From: an uncultured Bacilli bacterium
Lineage (GTDB): Bacteria > Bacillota_I > Bacilli_A > RF39 > UBA660
Length of the DNA: 35,374 bases
Direction of reading: 5' to 3'
Assembly (NCBI GenBank): GCA_944372205.1
Contig: CALVYM010000003.1
Span: 1-35,374, forward strand
The notes beneath the pieces were generated by a model. The model was not told the DNA's origin. It saw only the letters and a list, made by a program, of their open reading frames with translations, and made no database searches. Within the stretch, counting starts at the first letter, position 1. Every line of letters starts with the position of its first letter. The position numbers and the translations under genes are program-made. Of the stretch, positions 706 through 26,199 are shown in pieces.

Positions 706-1323
706 TTATTTTATAATTGATTCTAATAAAGTAATTAATTCATCTTCCTTTATATTAGATGTTTCAATATCAAAATAAATATCATTATATTTAAATGTCA
801 CTATATAAATGGTATTATATTTTGAAATAACTAAATTAGTATTATTTATTATAGAAGGCTTACCATCATCTATAAAATAATCTCTAATTGGGGTATTCGT
901 CTTAGAATAAGCGATAGTTATTCTTCTTTCATCATTAAAGTATTCTATGACATAATTGTTAAATGTACCATCACTTAAGAATATTGCTAAACCATTCATT
1001 TTATTTAGATCGGTAGGAATAACTATATTAAGTAATTCATCATAAATTTCAACCATATAATTATTTTCAACTTTAATATCACTATCTAGAGCAGTTAAAT
1101 TCATATTATCTATTTCATTAATATAAATTTCTTTGGTATCATCAAATATATCTGGTTTATTATTATTAGTTATTAGAAATAAACTAATAATTAATAATAA
1201 ACATATAGGTATTAAGCTATATTTTAAATATTTCATATTTCTTTTATTCATCCTTTCTTTAATTATTTTTAAGTTTTCATCTTTGTTTATATGTTTATTA
1301 AATGATTTATTTATTATATTCAT
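706..1323 (-). CDS. Putative membrane-anchored anti-sigma factor
   Basis: Overlaps the 3' end of the ECF sigma gene. Short cytoplasmic N-terminus, one TM helix (aa ~33-52), extracellular domain ending ...DIETSNIKEDELITLLESII (DUF4367-like). Confidence 0.65.
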   Translation of the reverse strand: MNIINKSFNKHINKDENLKIIKERMNKRNMKYLKYSLIPICLLLIISLFLITNNNKPDIFDDTKEIYINEIDNMNLTALDSDIKVENNYMVEIYDELLNIVIPTDLNKMNGLAIFLSDGTFNNYVIEYFNDERRITIAYSKTNTPIRDYFIDDGKPSIINNTNLVISKYNTIYIVTFKYNDIYFDIETSNIKEDELITLLESIIK

Positions 1324-1828
1324 TTAAAGCCTCCTTTAACTCGGATAGGGTTCTGTATATATAATGTTTAACATTAGATTCTGTAATATTTAATTGTCTT
1401 GCTATTTCTTTTATTGATAGACCTAAATAATAGTATAAGAAAAATACTTTTTGAATTATTTCTTTTTTCTTTAAAAGATACTTCCATATATAATCGATAT
1501 CACTTGTTTTTAAGAAACTTGCTTCAATATCAATATCACTTTTTAAAGTGTCAATTAGTTCCATATTTTCTTTTTTAGAAAATATGGAAACTAAATTTAT
1601 CTTATATTTGAAGCGATAATATTTATTGATTTCATTTTTAGCAATACCAAAAAGATATGCACTAACATTTTCTATGTTATGATTAGCTTTTATTTTTTCA
1701 AATAAAGAAAGATAAATGTTTTGAATTAAATCATTAACATCATCTAAAGATTTAGCATGGATTACTACATACTTTAAAATATCATTATATGTTTCATTAT
1801 ATATTTCTTCTAGAGTTAACTCGTTCAT
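1307..1828 (-). CDS. ECF (sigma-70 group IV) RNA polymerase sigma factor
   Basis: Region 2 (DDVNDLIQNIYL...AYLFGIAKN) and region 4 HTH (LYYYLGLSIKEIARQLNITESNVKHYIYR). Start moved to ATG 1828, which follows SD GGAGGG. Confidence 0.9.
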   Translation of the reverse strand: MNELTLEEIYNETYNDILKYVVIHAKSLDDVNDLIQNIYLSLFEKIKANHNIENVSAYLFGIAKNEINKYYRFKYKINLVSIFSKKENMELIDTLKSDIDIEASFLKTSDIDYIWKYLLKKKEIIQKVFFLYYYLGLSIKEIARQLNITESNVKHYIYRTLSELKEALNEYNK

Positions 1829-1981
1829 CTTTACCCTCCATAATATAAGTTGAAATTTTTGTAAAAAAGTTCCAAAAAAATAAAAAGATTGCAAAATTTA
1901 AAAATTTGTTTTTCTTGTTAATTACCATTCTCTCTTTCTAATTTAATTTACTTAATTCAACTGCAATATTTTTAACTTCTT

Positions 1982-2008
1982 TGTCGAACCATGTCTAGTT
2001 TTGTCGAA
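1982..2008. promoter_or_regulatory. Array of three Spo0A (0A) boxes at 10-bp period
   Basis: TGTCGAA 1982-1988, TGTCTAG 1992-1998 (degenerate), TGTCGAA 2002-2008; 0A consensus is TGNCGAA. Confidence 0.7.
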
Positions 2009-2012
2009 TCGC

Positions 2013-2040
2013 TTGCAATATCAAAAATATCCTTTATAAT
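2013..2040 (+). promoter_or_regulatory. sigmaA promoter of the small-peptide mRNA
   Basis: TTGCAA (2013-2018)-N16-TATAAT (2035-2040). Confidence 0.7.
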
Positions 2041-2140: not shown

Positions 2141-2230
2141 ATGAGTGAAAAACTATTTTTTCAACTTGTGATAATCATCGTTATTATCATTTTTGGTAGT
2201 AACAATGACAAAGACGCCACTAGAAAGTAG
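2141..2230 (+). CDS. 29-aa hydrophobic peptide, putative type I toxin
   Basis: MSEKLFFQLVIIIVIIIFGSNNDKDATRK*. SD GGAGG at 2130-2134; single hydrophobic stretch plus charged tail; embedded in a highly structured transcript. Confidence 0.65.
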   Translation: MSEKLFFQLVIIIVIIIFGSNNDKDATRK

Positions 2231-10526: not shown

Positions 10527-10621
10527 AATATTCCCTCCTTACTGACAAGTTCTCTATAATTATACCAAAATTATAAGATTTTTCAACTAATTTAGGTTTA
10601 AAATACCAAATTTACTAAAAT

Positions 10622-11458
10622 TTACTCAGTAACTAAGTTTAAAGAATTAGTTAAATCATTTAAAAAACCACTACATGTGCCATTATCTAACTTTATATAA
10701 TAATTTAAAGTATATAATTTATCTTCATAAATTAAAGCATAAATACAAGAATTTTCTTCATTAAAATAATACCATGTATAATTGTTAATAATTATACTAT
10801 CAATATTACTTGCTTGATAAACATTTTTTAAATACATTTCTTCATTATCATAATTATTATTCATAGTTTGGATTATAAAGTTACAATTATTTTCTTTATC
10901 TGTATATTCATAAGAAGAATATGTATTACTTTCATAATTATTTAGAAAACCACTAGGGACATTATAATTAATTTTTGTAACTTTTTCTTCTACAATATCA
11001 TTAGTATGATCTAAAAGGTCAAAAATCATTTCATATTCTTCTTTAAAAGTTATTATAAAGACTACTAAATAAACTACAAGAGCTATTATTAAAGCAATAT
11101 TAGATACTCCACCCTTTTTCTTGATCTTTTCTAATATCTCTTCTTCATTATTAGTACTCATCCTTATTTTTTTAATATCTCTATTTATTTTATATAAATA
11201 TAAATCTTTGAATTTTTTAGCTACAATAAATGAATATATAACAGATATTAAACTAGTAATTGTAGGCATTTTAAAAATTGTATCAAATATTAAAGTTATA
11301 ATAAAACTAATAATATAATAAATAATTGCATATAACCATAACTTACGATAGAAAAAATAAATAATTGATATTAAAAAAGTCGGCCAGGAAAAAGTAGAAT
11401 TCATTATTTTATCATAATTTTTACCAATATAAGCTTTAATATATTTTTCATCTTGCAT
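10622..11458 (-). CDS. DUF2628-like membrane protein with extracellular C-terminal domain
   Basis: AYIGKNY...FSWPTF...YFFYRKLW motif, KKGGVS before the last TM. Start set at ATG 11458 (SD GGTGA) but uncertain. Confidence 0.7.
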   Translation of the reverse strand: MQDEKYIKAYIGKNYDKIMNSTFSWPTFLISIIYFFYRKLWLYAIIYYIISFIITLIFDTIFKMPTITSLISVIYSFIVAKKFKDLYLYKINRDIKKIRMSTNNEEEILEKIKKKGGVSNIALIIALVVYLVVFIITFKEEYEMIFDLLDHTNDIVEEKVTKINYNVPSGFLNNYESNTYSSYEYTDKENNCNFIIQTMNNNYDNEEMYLKNVYQASNIDSIIINNYTWYYFNEENSCIYALIYEDKLYTLNYYIKLDNGTCSGFLNDLTNSLNLVTE

Positions 11459-11487
11459 AATATTCACCATTAACATCCACAAGGAAA

Positions 11488-12399
11488 CTATTTTTTATCA
11501 AATAATTTACCAACATCCGCTTGATTAGTTCCTGCCCCACCTCCAACTATTTGGGATAGTTCTTGCATACTTAAACTAGTTCCTTCTGATATAGTTTCTA
11601 AAGGTATTCCTAGTTTATGCAATCTTTTTGCAGTCTTTATATTTGCGTTCTTTTCTCCCTTCGCGATACCACGCTTTTCTCCATTGGCAAAGCCATCATC
11701 ATACTTTTCTTCTAACTGTGCTTTATGTAGCATTTCCCTATCTTTTTCGGGAGTTACTCCCCAGTAAAACTCAATATTATCATTTATTCTCATAACTATT
11801 TCTTTAAACCTCCTTATATATTTATCTTCTGGATAAAAGCTATCTAATGCATATTTATCTAATTTTAGCATTAATAAATATCTATATTTATCCTTTAACT
11901 TGATATCATTATAGCATAAATTTTCTAGACTATCTATATTTGCATTATAAATTTTAATATTATCCAATATGTATACCTCATTATTGTGTTGATACTCAAA
12001 AACTTCAATAGGGTCTGATGTTTTATTGCAATTAGCATTTAAATTAACTAAGGTATAACAAATTGTGGGATTATACTTATCATTAGTTAATACTTTCTGC
12101 GAAGCATAACTCATTAAATACATATAATTGCGATACATTTTGGATTTATCTAAATCGCCATTATTCATTTCTACCACCATATAACCATAATCAGTTTCTA
12201 CTAAAACATCGAGATTCTTTTCTTTTTCTTCTTTAGTACGCTGTGGTAGAGTTGGGACAATATATCTTTTTACTACTATTTTTCGGTTCAATATAGTACT
12301 AAGAATCAGGCCTAAAATAGATTTACCAAAATCATTATCAATACAAACATTTTTAAATATAACATTATATATAGCTGGAAGAAATTCTTTGGTTTCCAT
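11488..12399 (-). CDS. Rpn family (PD-(D/E)XK nuclease / putative transposase) protein
   Basis: N-terminal VIFK, LDVLVE...VVEMN nuclease core, G-x-x-x-G repeats (GFANGEKRGIAKGEK) and C-terminal AKRL...ETISEGTSLS helix bundle; SD AGGAGG. Confidence 0.85.
   Translation of the reverse strand: METKEFLPAIYNVIFKNVCIDNDFGKSILGLILSTILNRKIVVKRYIVPTLPQRTKEEKEKNLDVLVETDYGYMVVEMNNGDLDKSKMYRNYMYLMSYASQKVLTNDKYNPTICYTLVNLNANCNKTSDPIEVFEYQHNNEVYILDNIKIYNANIDSLENLCYNDIKLKDKYRYLLMLKLDKYALDSFYPEDKYIRRFKEIVMRINDNIEFYWGVTPEKDREMLHKAQLEEKYDDGFANGEKRGIAKGEKNANIKTAKRLHKLGIPLETISEGTSLSMQELSQIVGGGAGTNQADVGKLFDKK
11908..11936 (-). promoter_or_regulatory. Putative internal sigmaA promoter inside rpn
   Basis: TAGATA-N17-TATAAT with TG extension (TGCTATAAT), encoded by codons I-D...C-Y-N. 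Confidence 0.55.
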
Positions 12400-12421
12400 G
12401 ATTTTACCTCCTTGGCTCTAT

Positions 12422-12465
12422 ATAATAACACACTCATTTTAAAAATTTTGTCGAACAATGTCGAA
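12422..12465 (-). promoter_or_regulatory. Spo0A-activated-type promoter of rpn
   Basis: Minus strand TTCGACA-ttg-TTCGACA (two perfect 0A boxes, 12465-12449) upstream of GTGTGTTATTAT extended -10. Confidence 0.65.
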
Positions 12466-12487
12466 AGATTTAAAAAAATTGCAATTT

Positions 12488-14428
12488 TTAATAATTATCT
12501 GCAAGAAAAGAGGTTATTTCTTTAGTTATTTTACTAGCACCATAATACATTGTATCATTAGTTCCATTATTATGAGATATATTAGGAGTTATTACAACAA
12601 CACTGTATTTTGGGTCTTCATTAGGGAAGAAACCTGCAAAAGTTGAAGTAATAGTCTCAACATCGACCACCCCATCATTATTAGAATCATAAAAAGATTC
12701 ACTAGTTCCTGTTTTACCTGCTGCAAGCAAATCATCACGAACATAAATTTTTCCAGTCCCCTCTTTTAAAACTAAAGTTAATCCTTCCCTAATTCTATTT
12801 AAATATTCGGCATCTACTGCAACATCATTAAGTATTTCTATTTCATTTTCAACAACTACCTCATCATCGCATCTAATTTCCTTCATTAGTGATAAACTCA
12901 TCCTTGTTCCACTAGCCATACTATTAATGTACTGTAATACCTCAATTGGAGTATAAGTATCATATTGACCAATTGCTAAATTAAGAAGAAGATCATCAGC
13001 AACAGTAGAACCAATTATACCTGTAGTCTCCCCGGGTAAATCGATGTTAGTGATTGCTCCAAGACCAAAGCTTGCTAACATATCTCGATATATTTTAAAA
13101 TGTTCTTCTGTTGCATTTAACTTCATGTTTGGCTTATAAGTATTACCAGTAAGAGCAATAGCAATCATAAATTGATAATAATTAGAAGAATTGGCTAAAG
13201 CCGTTAGGTCATTTATTCTTCCCAATCTTTTAAAACTACATTTTTCAGGGGTTAGATAAAGTTTTACACAAGAATCAGTTATATACTCACCCATTTTAAT
13301 TAAATTGTTTTGATAACCTACTGCAATAGTTGCACCCTTGACAGCAGAACCTATAGTAAATGATTTATTAATCGTATTAAGAGAAATATCACTCCAAGTA
13401 TCATCACTATTAAGACGAATTCCTGCCATAGCAATAATCTCACCAGTTAATGGATTACTAACTAGAGCATAAGAATCTTTGTAATAATCTGTATTAGGAT
13501 ACTTTTTACCCAATAATATTTTATCTTTAATTATCTCTTCAGCTTTCATTTGAATATCAATATCAATAGATAAAACTAAGTCATTTCCTTTTTGTTCTTC
13601 TTCAACTAAAGTAAGAGTATTATCACTATTTACTAAATATTTGGCCTTTTTTCCTTTCAAATATTCTTCATACTCTTTTTCTAAATAACTAATACCTACA
13701 ATATCTGTTAATTCATAACCCTTACTTAAATACTCATCTTTCTCTTCGCTTGGAATACTTCCAACAGAACCTAATATATTTTTTAAAGTATCTTCATATA
13801 AATATATTCTTTCCCAGGATAGTTCTCCTGTAACACCAGGAATATTACTTTCAATAATTTTTGCATATTCACTATCACTAACTTTCTTTAATATCTCTTT
13901 TTTACTATATACATATCCATCATTCATTAAACTATAAATTTTAGCACACTCTTTAAATAATTCATCTTCTTCATTTAACATCTCTTCACTAATTCGCTCT
14001 ATTTTTAAATCATATATTTCATCACTAGTTATTTTTCTTTCATCTAATAAGTTATACTCTTCTTCAGTTATTAAATTACTACCATTATTATTATTTACTA
14101 ACCAAAACTCTTTTTGTTCCATTATACTTCCTTCATCAATACTTAAAATACTGGCGAGTTTGTAAGCAATTTCAATTTCTTTTTTAGTACTTATACCTTT
14201 TATTTTATTATAATAAATTGTTTTAATACCAAGATTATCTACTAAAACTTTACCATTAGTATCAAGTATCCTTCCTCTTGGAGCACTACCACCATTTACA
14301 TAAATAACTGTTTTATTATTAAGAGCTAAAGTAAAAAATTCTTTATCTGACCAAATAAAAATTAATCTTGTTAAAAAAAGAGTAAAGATAGCAATAACTA
14401 ATAAATATAAATACATTTTCTTTTTCAT
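12488..14428 (-). CDS. pbpA: Class B penicillin-binding protein (PbpA/PBP2a-like transpeptidase)
   Basis: APRGRILD dimerisation motif; catalytic motifs SAVK, SSN, KTGT. Confidence 0.9.
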   Translation of the reverse strand: MKKKMYLYLLVIAIFTLFLTRLIFIWSDKEFFTLALNNKTVIYVNGGSAPRGRILDTNGKVLVDNLGIKTIYYNKIKGISTKKEIEIAYKLASILSIDEGSIMEQKEFWLVNNNNGSNLITEEEYNLLDERKITSDEIYDLKIERISEEMLNEEDELFKECAKIYSLMNDGYVYSKKEILKKVSDSEYAKIIESNIPGVTGELSWERIYLYEDTLKNILGSVGSIPSEEKDEYLSKGYELTDIVGISYLEKEYEEYLKGKKAKYLVNSDNTLTLVEEEQKGNDLVLSIDIDIQMKAEEIIKDKILLGKKYPNTDYYKDSYALVSNPLTGEIIAMAGIRLNSDDTWSDISLNTINKSFTIGSAVKGATIAVGYQNNLIKMGEYITDSCVKLYLTPEKCSFKRLGRINDLTALANSSNYYQFMIAIALTGNTYKPNMKLNATEEHFKIYRDMLASFGLGAITNIDLPGETTGIIGSTVADDLLLNLAIGQYDTYTPIEVLQYINSMASGTRMSLSLMKEIRCDDEVVVENEIEILNDVAVDAEYLNRIREGLTLVLKEGTGKIYVRDDLLAAGKTGTSESFYDSNNDGVVDVETITSTFAGFFPNEDPKYSVVVITPNISHNNGTNDTMYYGASKITKEITSFLADNY

Positions 14429-23732: not shown

Positions 23733-24149
23733 TTATAATCTAATTAATTCTTCTAACCAGAAATAATCTTTGTTTTCAAAATCACAGGCGAATAGTTCAT
23801 TAAGAGGTAAAAATTTTCTAATATTTTTATTAATAATATTAGTTTTAAGTAAAATATGTGAGTTTCTTACCAAAATGTTTGTTTCTTCCTTACGATATTT
23901 ATTAACTATTTTATGATTGTCTCCAACTTTCATATAAAAATCATTATCTTTATTTAAATCATAAATTAATTTATTATACTTAAGTTTATCTATTGGTACT
24001 ATTAAATCATCTAATAAATCTTTACCATAACCAATATTAGCTTTATCAAGTAAATATATCCCTTCTAAAGATTTAAATAAATTATAAGGAGATTCCCTTA
24101 ATAATAAAGTCATACTACGATTAATTCTAAAAATATAAAAAGTCCGCAT
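23733..24149 (-). CDS. sirA: Sporulation inhibitor of replication SirA-like protein
   Basis: MRTFYIFRI N-terminus, FACDFENKDYFWL C-terminus, tkt-sirA-yneF synteny; start set at ATG 24149 (SD GGGTGA). Confidence 0.75.
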   Translation of the reverse strand: MRTFYIFRINRSMTLLLRESPYNLFKSLEGIYLLDKANIGYGKDLLDDLIVPIDKLKYNKLIYDLNKDNDFYMKVGDNHKIVNKYRKEETNILVRNSHILLKTNIINKNIRKFLPLNELFACDFENKDYFWLEELIRL

Positions 24150-24166
24150 TATTATCACCCAGATAT

Positions 24167-24210
24167 ATGATAACACACGGAACTTAAAAAATTTGTCAGA
24201 TTATGTCGAT
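24167..24210 (-). promoter_or_regulatory. Spo0A-activated-type promoter of sirA
   Basis: Degenerate 0A boxes TGTCAGA (24194-24200) and TGTCGAT (24204-24210) on +; GTGTGTTATCAT extended -10 on minus. Confidence 0.6.
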
Positions 24211-26199
24211 AGATACATCTTTTGTTAAAAAACTAGCAATACTTGCTAAAATAGTAGCTTTATCAAACTTTAAATACTTTGCAACATCTTCGCTTTTACC
24301 ACTCATACCAAAGCGATTTATCCCATAGATGTATTCTGGTTTAGTTGCAAAACGGTTCCAAATTAAACTAGCACCTGCCTCAATTACAAATGTTGGAACA
24401 TCTTTTGGTAGTAATTGTTCTTCGTATTTAGGATTTTGTTTTAAGAAAAGTTCCATTGATGGCATTGAGACCACTCTTGTATCTATGCCCATAGTAAACA
24501 ATTCTTTAGAAATATCTACTGCCATTGCTACTTCACTACCAGTTGCAATTATAACTCCATCTAAACGAAATTTTTCTTTACGAATCATGTATGCCCCATA
24601 TTTAACAAATTTGGCATTAGTATTTTTTAGTTTGCTTCTTTTTTCTTTACTAAGCACTAAAGCTGTTGGACAATTGTTTTTTAAAATATATTCCCATGAA
24701 CCCATTATTTCGTTAATATCTGCTGGTCTAAAAGTGATGAAATTCGGAGTGGTTCTTAACATTGTAAGTTGTTCAACAGGTTCATGCGTTGGGCCATCTT
24801 CTCCAACATATATGGAATCATGAGTGTAAATGTAAGTTACTGGTAAATTCATTAAAGCAGACATACGAATCGCTGGTTTTTGATAATCACTAAAACTTAA
24901 AAATGTCGATGCGAATACTTTTAAATTTGATAGTGCCATGCCATTAAGAATTGCCCCCATTGCATGTTCTCTTACACCAAAATAAATATTTTTACCTACG
25001 GGATTATCAGGACTTTGAATAGTTGATTTATCTAAGTTTGTTTTGCAACTGGATGAAAGATCAGCAGAACCACCTAGAAAGAAAGGACTTTTTGGAGATA
25101 TAAAATTCATAATTTTATGATTACTTTCCCTTAATTCTTCGCTATATTCATCACTTATTTTAAACTTTGTATCATCAAAATCAATAACAAAAGCATTTCT
25201 TTCAAGTAAATTAAATAATGAATTTAAACCAAAATTATTAGTTTCTTTAATATCAGTGTATTCTTCTTCCCAATTTTTAAAAATCGGAGCCATTCTCTTA
25301 TTAATAGTATTTAATATATGTTCTTTATATTTACTATCTACTGTAAATGGTTCACTAGTAATTTTAAATTTTTCTTTTAAATTACTTAAATCTTCTTTTG
25401 TTAAAGGTTTACCATGAACTTTATTTGTTCCTTCATTAATTGAATCTTTACCAATTATGGTATGACATATTATAATACTTGGTCTATCGCTTTTTTTAGC
25501 TTGTTTTATGGCTTTTGATACTTCTGTATAATCAGTAGCATTCTTAACTTCAAAAATATCAAAATCTAATGCTTCAAAACGAATAGCTATATCTTCCGTA
25601 AAAGTAATATTAGTATCACTATCTAGGCTAACTTGATTACAATCATATAATATAATTAATTTATTTAAATTTTGAGTACTAGCAAAAGATAATGCTTCAT
25701 AAGAAATACCTTCCATTAAATCACCATCACCACAAAAACAATAAGTATAATAATCAATTAACTTTGTATTTTTCTTTTCGATATTAGCAATAGCATTTAA
25801 ATACCTCTCAGCCATAGCCATACCAACAGCCATACCAATGCCTTGTCCTAATGGTCCAGTTGTTACATCAATTCCTGGTGTAACTTTATATTCTGGATGA
25901 CCTGGGGTAAGAGAATTAAGTGATCTAAATTGTTTTAATTCATCCATATCAATATTAAAGCCAGCATGATAAAGCATAGAATATAAAAGAGCTGAACCAT
26001 GACCTGCTGACATTACAAAACGGTCTCTATTAACCCAATCTGGTTTGCTTGGTATTACATTTAAATGATCTTTATATAAAGCATAAAGAATCGGAGCAGC
26101 TCCCAAAACTATGCCTGGATGACCACTACCTGCTTTATCAATCATGTCTAGTGCTAATACTTTAATACTATTAATAGCTTCATTATCAATTTTACTCAT
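24196..26199 (-). CDS. tkt: Transketolase
   Basis: SGHPG, NRDRFVMSAGHGS, TGPLGQG, GDGDLMEG, FGVREHAM, THDSI..GEDGPTHEP. Confidence 0.98.
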   Translation of the reverse strand: MSKIDNEAINSIKVLALDMIDKAGSGHPGIVLGAAPILYALYKDHLNVIPSKPDWVNRDRFVMSAGHGSALLYSMLYHAGFNIDMDELKQFRSLNSLTPGHPEYKVTPGIDVTTGPLGQGIGMAVGMAMAERYLNAIANIEKKNTKLIDYYTYCFCGDGDLMEGISYEALSFASTQNLNKLIILYDCNQVSLDSDTNITFTEDIAIRFEALDFDIFEVKNATDYTEVSKAIKQAKKSDRPSIIICHTIIGKDSINEGTNKVHGKPLTKEDLSNLKEKFKITSEPFTVDSKYKEHILNTINKRMAPIFKNWEEEYTDIKETNNFGLNSLFNLLERNAFVIDFDDTKFKISDEYSEELRESNHKIMNFISPKSPFFLGGSADLSSSCKTNLDKSTIQSPDNPVGKNIYFGVREHAMGAILNGMALSNLKVFASTFLSFSDYQKPAIRMSALMNLPVTYIYTHDSIYVGEDGPTHEPVEQLTMLRTTPNFITFRPADINEIMGSWEYILKNNCPTALVLSKEKRSKLKNTNAKFVKYGAYMIRKEKFRLDGVIIATGSEVAMAVDISKELFTMGIDTRVVSMPSMELFLKQNPKYEEQLLPKDVPTFVIEAGASLIWNRFATKPEYIYGINRFGMSGKSEDVAKYLKFDKATILASIASFLTKDVSIDII

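Follow-up and report, generated by a model that had tools for sequence, protein, structure and literature searches.

Tandem 0A boxes in the promoter of an Rpn-family nuclease gene and of other toxin and defence genes in an uncultured genus of Bacilli

The window, a stretch of 35,374 nucleotides (nt) from an uncultured Bacilli bacterium (contig CALVYM010000003.1), carries on its minus strand a gene, here called rpn (11488..12399), for a 303-amino-acid (aa) divergent member of the Rpn/PDDEXK_2 nuclease family. Its promoter (12422-12465) contains two perfect copies of the 0A box, the binding sequence of the regulator Spo0A. This promoter is one instance of a class common to many toxin, defence and prophage accessory genes, and is not peculiar to one Rpn gene. 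A portable sigma-A promoter activated by phosphorylated Spo0A (Spo0A~P) probably gates Rpn and other toxin and defence genes, with the sign of the control, activation, being what we infer from promoter layout. A previous reading of the window, made from its letters alone (the sequence-only reading), had proposed that rpn shares a Spo0A-type promoter with a sirA-like gene of the same stretch and is wired into the onset of sporulation.

The rpn promoter and its class

All features of the rpn promoter are on the minus strand and are given in the direction of transcription. The distal box TTCGACA (12459..12465), the reverse complement of the consensus TGTCGAA, is followed after a 3-bp spacer (ttg) by the proximal box TTCGACA (12449..12455), 10 bp away centre to centre. 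Eighteen nt separate the proximal box from TGtTATTAT (12430-12422), the end of an extended -10 element TGTGtTATTAT (12422..12432). The canonical 17-nt place for a -35 hexamer (12450-12445) holds CAAAAT, a 1/6 match to TTGACA, and the -35-like position is taken up by the TCGACA of the proximal box, whose distance to TATTAT is 21 nt. The two boxes, both perfect matches to TGTCGAA, form a tandem pair at 3-bp spacing over the -35 region, with an over-long distance to the -10; the corresponding spacing in Bacillus subtilis spoIIG and spoIIE is 22 and 21 bp. A ribosome-binding site (RBS), GGAGG (12407..12411), lies 7 nt before the ATG at 12399, and the start of transcription is predicted near 12415. 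The A/T-rich upstream part, beginning aaaattgcaattttttt (12466..12487), is conserved among rpn paralogs and starts immediately 3' of the stop codon of a penicillin-binding protein (PBP) gene. Within it, just upstream of the distal box, an 8-nt unit AAAATTGC occurs in one or two copies across genomes and metagenome contigs (loci L018 and L119; run X10). The coordinates and letters reported in the sequence-only reading for both promoters were correct on re-reading, both genes being on the minus strand, and its description of two 0A-like boxes 10 bp apart at the -35 place, perfect at rpn, was confirmed.

The same reading had rested on a gapless alignment of the rpn and sirA-like 44-mers. The alignment exists (33 of 44 positions identical), and as evidence the raw identity was rejected: six same-strand diagonals at or above 33/44 occur in the window versus one and two in two first-order Markov random sequences, so the figure is within chance for this DNA. 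With raw identity unremarkable, the weight rests on which positions are shared. These were counted in the genome from which the window comes (hereafter the own genome, G000), a 1.23-Mb draft in 145 contigs with 26.5% G+C and 91% completeness, of which the window is one whole contig. Single TTCGACA/TGTCGAA heptamers are not enriched there (108 seen, where base composition predicts about 105). Perfect pairs 10 bp apart number 11, versus about 0.004 expected, and the reversed-pattern control gave none in 41 genomes. The full architecture, termed the class-I promoter, was scanned as a proximal box with up to one mismatch, a distal box with up to two, and TGnTAnnnT at 17-19 nt; it was found seven times in the own genome versus a mean of 0.3 in 20 shuffles. 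Across the genus the class-I pattern (up to one mismatch) gave 51 matches in 18 of 56 genomes, versus none in the 56 for the backward pattern, and in phage contigs the exact pattern was present in at least 117 stretches versus 2 for the backward one. The distance from the proximal box to TGnTAnnnT is exactly 18 nt in all seven own-genome matches and all 51 genus matches. The structure of the rpn promoter is far beyond chance.

These counts bear on the explanation in which the boxes have no regulatory meaning: duplication or gene conversion would have spread a strong promoter cassette through the paralogs, boxes included, and in A/T-rich DNA the resemblance to the sirA-like promoter would have arisen by chance. 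The unremarkable 33/44 identity fits it, as do the promoters of rpn paralogs at about 31% aa identity, which are nearly identical outside the boxes too; Rpn proteins are, moreover, described in the accessible text of PMC5350276 as damaging DNA and promoting RecA-independent recombination. It is very unlikely all the same, since the promoters of unrelated genes share only the boxes and the -10 while their spacers differ, since the spacer between the boxes varies while the boxes persist (across three genomes, rpn orthologues of about 80% aa identity retain the two boxes around ttg, gga or tta), and since each of three separate collections exceeds its reversed-pattern control by a very wide margin.

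The genes behind the promoter were then identified. In the genus, 30 of the 51 matches were examined and 20 of 28 open reading frames (ORFs) scanned, the others being duplicates, truncated copies or the window's own. The first downstream gene encodes Rpn at nine of the 30 loci, a YhcG/DUF1016 nuclease (PADLOC candidate system PDC-S02) at five, a MvaI/BcnI-type restriction endonuclease at two, a protein with a LexA DNA-binding domain only at two, ComK at one and a 444-aa protein of unknown function at two. Four further loci carry copies of a lipoprotein gene with its own promoter further down, four have other unknown genes and one has no ORF. The own genome holds 20 tandem sites with up to one mismatch: nine in eight arrays of a repeated family, three at Rpn genes, one each at spo0A, dnaA, AbiEi, beside an AbiEii gene, at the 444-aa gene and at a secreted-protein gene accompanied by a sortase gene, and two unexplained. 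The promoter before AbiEi is of class I. A weaker class-I copy precedes an operon (contig C7:17221-18655, locus L132) encoding an 86-aa protein with a LexA DNA-binding domain only, a second small protein of 79 aa and a HipA_C kinase (PADLOC PDC-M03A), which we take to resemble the three-part toxin modules of the HipBST kind. Elsewhere in the own genome, two class-I-like promoters that are almost the same as each other (C8:17411 and C9:1874; TAGACA with TTCGACA or ATCGACA, 18 nt, TGTTATAAT) stand before unrelated genes, one for a short-chain dehydrogenase (SDR) and one for a 588-aa fibronectin-III protein.

Phage cargo was sampled by fetching 80 of the at least 117 loci (L192-L271; IMG/VR, 23-38% G+C) and scanning 33 representatives. 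The largest cluster (13) consists of small membrane proteins that combine a zinc ribbon with a TM2 domain, followed by Ltp-type lipoproteins (six), SHOCT-domain proteins and helix-turn-helix proteins. No Rpn was found among these 80 loci and 33 scanned representatives. Three small phage proteins behind the promoter are weakly Spo0E-like by Pfam; such proteins would give a phage feedback on the Spo0A~P of its host.

The Rpn protein and the movement of its promoter

Rpn homologues were found by protein search, independently of the motif, in the own genome and the genus. In the own genome a tandem pair (up to one mismatch, within 150 nt upstream) precedes three of six evaluable Rpn genes versus 9 of 1063 other crude ORFs (Fisher p = 2e-5); two of the six run off contigs and were added by hand, and a seventh has a contig end inside its promoter. 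In other genomes of the genus, pairs with up to two mismatches occur in 11 of 19 distinct Rpn upstream regions versus 1 of 32 other ORFs at the same loci. The enrichment of tandem boxes upstream of Rpn homologues, which the sequence-only reading had put forward as the check on its proposal, is thus borne out within this genus. Full class-I geometry is present in 10 of 22 distinct Rpn upstream regions; the remainder have arrays before a TTTACA -35, forward pairs before TTGACT, or no boxes.

Upstream of rpn is the PBP gene (12488..14428, minus strand), and downstream, beginning 5-30 nt past the end of rpn and without an intervening terminator, a DUF2628 membrane protein gene (10622..11482, minus strand), which is probably co-transcribed with rpn. 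Two genomes (G066 and G001) have empty sites, with the PBP gene followed after 28 nt by the DUF2628 gene and neither rpn nor boxes between them. An origin of the promoter with the DUF2628 gene, before rpn arrived, which the sequence-only reading had named as what would undo it, was rejected on these sites, and that reading stands on this point. As the empty sites lack both, promoter and rpn were inserted together. At the same PBP-DUF2628 site in genome G052 (locus L119) the rpn orthologue is in three pieces, probably a pseudogene, and its promoter is intact with two perfect boxes. Short contigs from four chicken-gut/metagenome runs, compared with the stretch, gave no clean joint marking the ends of the cassette; one run contig skips 11423-12564, with 21 nt on one side, and is too weak to use.

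The Rpn label itself needs a qualification. The 303-aa protein matches TIGR01784 (NCBIfam Rpn) over nearly the whole profile (positions 5-273 of 273; E 7.9e-10), with 39 bits against a cut-off of 52.1, and the Pfam scan of the protein gave no match even at E 10. It is homologous (E 1e-36) to a paralog in genome G022 (loci L041/L081) that passes PDDEXK_2 at 37.2 bits versus a cut-off of 27.4. The name given in the sequence-only reading accordingly has homology and a full-length profile match below the formal cut-off behind it, and is weaker than that reading implied. A PDB sequence search with the protein returned nothing relevant, and no PADLOC model matches it, the 444-aa protein or the DUF2628 protein. 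The own genome gave 13 matches to the Rpn model, about seven of them long and many at contig ends.

Candidate catalytic residues of the protein are N12, D64 and E77-x-N79, followed by a C-terminal short-repeat region and a tail. In an alignment with six paralogs D64 and E77 (in VVEMN) are invariant, N79 replaces Q, and residue 12 is Asn versus Asp in all six. Among orthologues it is N in G000, G024 and G020 and D in G022. The catalytic residues of RpnA are given as D11, D63, E82 and Q84, with D11A inactive, in the accessible text of PMC5350276. The short variable C-terminal repeats described for Rpn proteins (PMC10400941, as excerpted) have a counterpart here, the repeat region being four residues longer in the G020 orthologue and carrying long GIEQ repeats at locus L068. 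Contigs of three other runs carry, between near-identical flanks, a diverged segment of the same length at 11893-12073 inside rpn, which on this comparison is a variable internal cassette of the protein. A search for an internal start of a small Rpn antitoxin gave none that was convincing; in-frame ATGs at codons 203 and 223 are kept in four of four orthologues, neither with a well-placed Shine-Dalgarno sequence.

Spo0A, other box-bearing genes and the sporulation gene set

TGTCGAA is the Spo0A consensus, and two boxes 3 bp apart are a binding unit of Spo0A~P dimers, which activate or repress, with repression at many promoters (PMC2731898, excerpted text); spoIIG is among the activated ones (PMC2731898 and PMC12090719, likewise in excerpt). 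The own genome encodes Spo0A (Spo0A_C at 127.6 bits), whose C-terminal domain (contig C9:20964-21728) aligns with the Bacillus DNA-binding domains 1lq1 and 1fc3 (about E 1e-35) and is identical in the stretch RVERAIRHAIE, so that a cognate factor with a conserved recognition helix is present in the same genome. Boxes also stand at genes that are Spo0A targets in B. subtilis. Three to four precede spo0A itself, the proximal one kept in four of four readable relatives. A tandem pair with one mismatch lies 115 nt upstream of dnaA, by TTATCCACA-like DnaA boxes (G000 C40:7899-7915, locus L139); this is the expected place for Spo0A control of replication, and binding of Spo0A at oriC is described in the available part of PMC4285326. 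One reverse box precedes spoIIGA in five of six genomes examined, and in one relative (G014) comK is preceded by boxes of the same promoter class as rpn. In a set of 41 genomes from the genus and class, perfect pairs were found in 15 of the 30 that have a Spo0A domain versus 1 of the 11 without a Spo0A match, the single exception being 67% complete and of the same genus; as relatives are not independent, this co-occurrence serves as a consistency check and not as a statistic. The boxes are credibly those of Spo0A.

A different owner of the heptamers was considered, namely a protein that travels with the promoter (the 78-86-aa LexA-domain proteins, AbiEi, or Rpn itself, autoregulating through its helix-rich C-terminal part); the heptamers would then resemble 0A boxes by coincidence. 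Autoregulation by way of direct promoter repeats is usual for toxin-antitoxin modules, AbiEi and the small LexA-like genes are themselves behind class-I promoters, and the promoter moves with rpn. We regard this explanation as distinctly unlikely. The same boxes stand at the non-mobile spo0A, dnaA, spoIIGA, comK and sirA-like genes, at least six unrelated gene families and many Rpn-free phage contigs lie behind the class, perfect pairs track the presence of Spo0A across the 41 genomes, and the heptamer is the exact Spo0A consensus at the known 3-bp spacing (PMC2731898, excerpt).

The second promoter of the window to which the proposal had been tied (24167..24210, minus strand) reads ATCGACA (24210-24204), taa, TCTGACA (24200-24194), 18 nt and TGtTATCAT (24175-24167), before an ATG at 24149. 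It shares the rpn geometry, with weaker boxes. Behind it is a gene for a 138-aa protein (23733..24149, minus strand), directly downstream of tkt (24196-26199, minus strand), whose stop codon TGA (24198-24196) lies inside the proximal box TCTGACA. This promoter is conserved in all 30 genus loci examined and its distal box in 29; the distal box is formed by tkt codons ATC GAC A(TA), and 29 of 30 genomes retain ATC GAC, where at 26.5% G+C synonyms ending in A or T would be expected. The gene is core in the genus (52 of 56 genomes). In B. subtilis, too, sirA lies directly after tkt.

The 138-aa protein is probably a divergent SirA. Pfam SirA (PF10747) matches it at E 0.0076 and 17.1 bits, below the cut-off of 26; weak matches to the profile were obtained for 16 of 16 genus members (best E 2.4e-4), and a PDB sequence search with the SirA-like profile did not find SirA. 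The AlphaFold model has as its top PDB fold match 4tps_A, the SirA-DnaA complex (E 0.13, probability 0.69, TM 0.45), which is a hint only, the confidence of the model being low (pLDDT 61). The sirA label of the sequence-only reading thus has the genus-wide matches and the tkt neighbour on its side and the Pfam cut-off against it. Its identity is not needed as an anchor, as spo0A, dnaA and comK fill that role.

Components of sporulation were sought in the genus, which NCBI places in Bacilli incertae sedis. Spo0A was found in 23 of 24 relatives and SpoIIGA in six of six, SpoIIID is present, and SpoIVA occurs in 53 of 56 genus genomes. The sequencing runs containing the stretch are mostly labelled chicken gut, and among those listed for 10600-13000 none was an RNA run.

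A repeated family of box arrays has a different layout, two or three phased forward TGTCGAA boxes being directly upstream of TTGCAA-16/17-TATAAT. Eleven arrays were found in the own genome, weaker copies included (the window; contigs C2, C6, C7, C12 with two, C16, C43 with two, C55 and C100). In the window, on the plus strand, the array promoter (1982..2040) consists of TGTCGAA (1982-1988), TGTCTAG (1992-1998), TGTCGAA (2002-2008), TTGCAA (2013-2018), 16 nt and TATAAT (2035-2040), and is followed by a 29-aa hydrophobic ORF (2141..2230). At five arrays, this one among them, a leader of roughly 100 nt and GGAGG lead into an ORF for a hydrophobic peptide of 27-29 aa whose tail is charged. Five aligned copies (C2, C3, C6, C7 and C16), including the window's, near 2300-2275, show a convergent promoter on the other strand. 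The family looks like type I toxin-antitoxin loci carrying Spo0A boxes; Rfam gave no family for it, reporting nothing but three tRNAs in the window and no more than a sub-threshold narK match around the small-ORF locus. Read on the minus strand, the same array precedes a sigma-70-family gene (1307-1894, minus strand) with regions 2 and 4 by about 90-120 nt (within 1895-2018), and may serve both directions.

Proposed control, known relatives and meaning

In the mechanism proposed here, the 44-nt core would act as a sigma-A promoter that, like those of spoIIG and spoIIE, depends on Spo0A~P, with head-to-tail boxes replacing the -35. RNA polymerase alone would use it poorly, and Spo0A~P on the boxes would recruit or activate the polymerase; transcription of rpn would depend on Spo0A~P because the boxes replace the -35 and leave polymerase the extended -10 only. 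A low level of Spo0A~P would probably be sufficient, since both boxes are consensus. The portable unit, made up of A/T-rich leader, boxes, -10, RBS and rpn, was inserted between the PBP stop codon and the DUF2628 gene, and would drive rpn and, by read-through, the DUF2628 gene. Genes of the class would be switched on as Spo0A~P rises, at high density, in starvation or at the onset of sporulation. Binding of Spo0A, activation by that binding and the purpose of the timing are all argued from sequence patterns. The wiring of Rpn into sporulation proposed in the sequence-only reading is supported by the in-silico tests it had named, with the amendment that the response may be to low Spo0A~P, in the transition state, and not to sporulation proper. 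"Spo0A-gated" is the safer wording. Either of the functions which that reading had suggested, developmental surveillance of phages and mobile elements or a selfish gene timed to sporulation, may apply.

Several points weigh against activation of rpn by Spo0A~P as part of a sporulation response. The paralogs and relatives compared are not independent, and every count is raised by copying of the promoter cassette. In the genus itself, the spoIIGA promoter carries a single box, about 31 nt from TATAAT, and the class-I geometry is therefore not anchored on the canonical activated promoter of the genus. The extended -10 might allow transcription independent of Spo0A, and read-through from the PBP gene is possible because a search between that gene and the rpn promoter revealed no terminator-like site. 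The Rpn of the window may be impaired through N12, which would correspond to RpnA D11 by motif position. The sporulation gene set has gaps: the SpoIVA of the own genome is two short fragments with stops (contig C111), the SpoIIE phosphatase domain was found in none of six genomes examined, and an alpha/beta-type small acid-soluble spore protein occurs in only 1 of 56 genomes. Judged by gene content, the sporulation programme of the genus is reduced or unusual.

The letters of the rpn promoter further allow the opposite sign. In a consensus scan, the TCGACA of the distal box, 17 nt and TAAAAT form an alternative hexamer pair with 10 of 12 matches, which would put the proximal box in the spacer, where Spo0A would repress. 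Spo0A~P would on this account bind and shut the promoter, which would fire in growth, from its extended -10 or from this alternative pair, and close at the onset of sporulation, keeping the nuclease from the spore-destined chromosome. Extended -10 promoters can work without a -35. Spo0A is, in addition, a repressor at many promoters in the accessible portion of PMC2731898. Repression is nevertheless unlikely: TAAAAT is not conserved across the class, being absent from the class-I promoters of the 444-aa, SDR and sirA-like genes and from many in the genus, and TGnTAnnnT stands at 18 nt in all of them; the three weakly Spo0E-like phage genes fit feedback on rising Spo0A~P better than shut-off; and the probable sirA has the same geometry, SirA being made under Spo0A~P in B. 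subtilis (PMC4285326, available part). Activation by Spo0A~P is retained as the preferred sign.

The closest known promoters are those of B. subtilis spoIIG and spoIIE, with which the window promoter shares reverse 0A boxes over the -35 region, an over-long distance between -35-like hexamer and -10 (21 nt here) and a sigma-A -10. It differs in its perfect boxes (those of spoIIG were reportedly described as weak by Baldus in 1994), its extended TGTGn -10, its nuclease-toxin cargo and its portability. B. subtilis sirA (yneE), which encodes a DnaA inhibitor controlled by Spo0A~P, resembles the sirA-like gene of the window, a small gene after tkt with 0A-like boxes, weak SirA matches and 4tps_A as a low-confidence top fold match; the latter gene is very divergent in sequence and below the Pfam cut-off, and its imperfect boxes overlap the last tkt codons and stop. 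The skf and sdp cannibalism toxins of B. subtilis are Spo0A-dependent, and CRISPR-Cas can be under quorum-sensing control. In these systems, as here, a master regulator of density or starvation turns on toxins or immunity; the skf and sdp toxins are secreted peptides and the CRISPR regulator is a quorum-sensing one, whereas the toxins described here are nucleases and a kinase that stay inside the cell, together with membrane peptides, and their promoters are portable.

Escherichia coli Rpn (YhgA-like) proteins share with the window protein the N-terminal PD-(D/E)XK core, putative here, with D...E-x-(Q/N), variable C-terminal repeats, multiple copies, patchy distribution and horizontal movement (PMC5350276 and PMC10400941, in excerpt). 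They have an intragenic antitoxin and, in the excerpted text of these sources, a regulation not tied to a developmental regulator; the window copy has Asn in place of the first acidic residue and no convincing internal start. Phage phi29 and relatives are mobile elements with consensus 0A boxes, often in pairs 3 bp apart, that couple genes to the Spo0A state of the host; in the available part of PMC2731898, Spo0A represses their promoters and replication, whereas the geometry in the window is of the activated type and the gene carried, for a toxin or for defence, resides in the host. A search of open-access full text, its results judged by title and opening of the abstract, found no published description of a Spo0A-Rpn link or of 0A-box promoters on defence genes. 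The mechanism would be one already known; the cargo, the portability and the spread over toxin, defence and prophage accessory genes appear to be new.

A bolder proposal, offered tentatively as a possibility that we would not yet bet on, is that these gut Bacilli with small genomes, and beyond them the prophages of low-GC spore-formers, have taken over Spo0A to command a mobile arsenal. The portable module of tandem consensus 0A boxes and extended -10 would have been attached repeatedly to unrelated genes for toxins, nucleases, restriction, abortive infection and superinfection exclusion (Rpn, YhcG/PDC-S02, MvaI/BcnI, HipA-like kinase, AbiEi and Ltp-like lipoproteins), with type I membrane toxin-like loci using a different box layout, and immunity or self-harm would be gated by the decision to sporulate, itself triggerable by phage attack. 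A 2026 commentary (PMC13561409, in excerpt) states that in B. subtilis infection by phage itself sets off Spo0A~P at the infection fronts.

For the timing of dangerous defence and toxin genes in bacteria, the rpn locus offers a concrete candidate wiring, in which a regulator of development would read a compact promoter module that moves with its cargo. For Rpn, the differences between toxin and antitoxin levels in a 2023 study "suggest additional regulation" (PMC10400941, excerpt). If the proposed control is true, part of the defence repertoire of spore-formers would be conditional on the transition to dormancy, and prophage "moron" genes would share the same switch. The 44-nt module would then be an in-silico marker for Spo0A-gated toxins and defence genes in uncultured Bacillota, and the Spo0A regulon of a 1.2-Mb genome would consist largely of mobile toxin genes.

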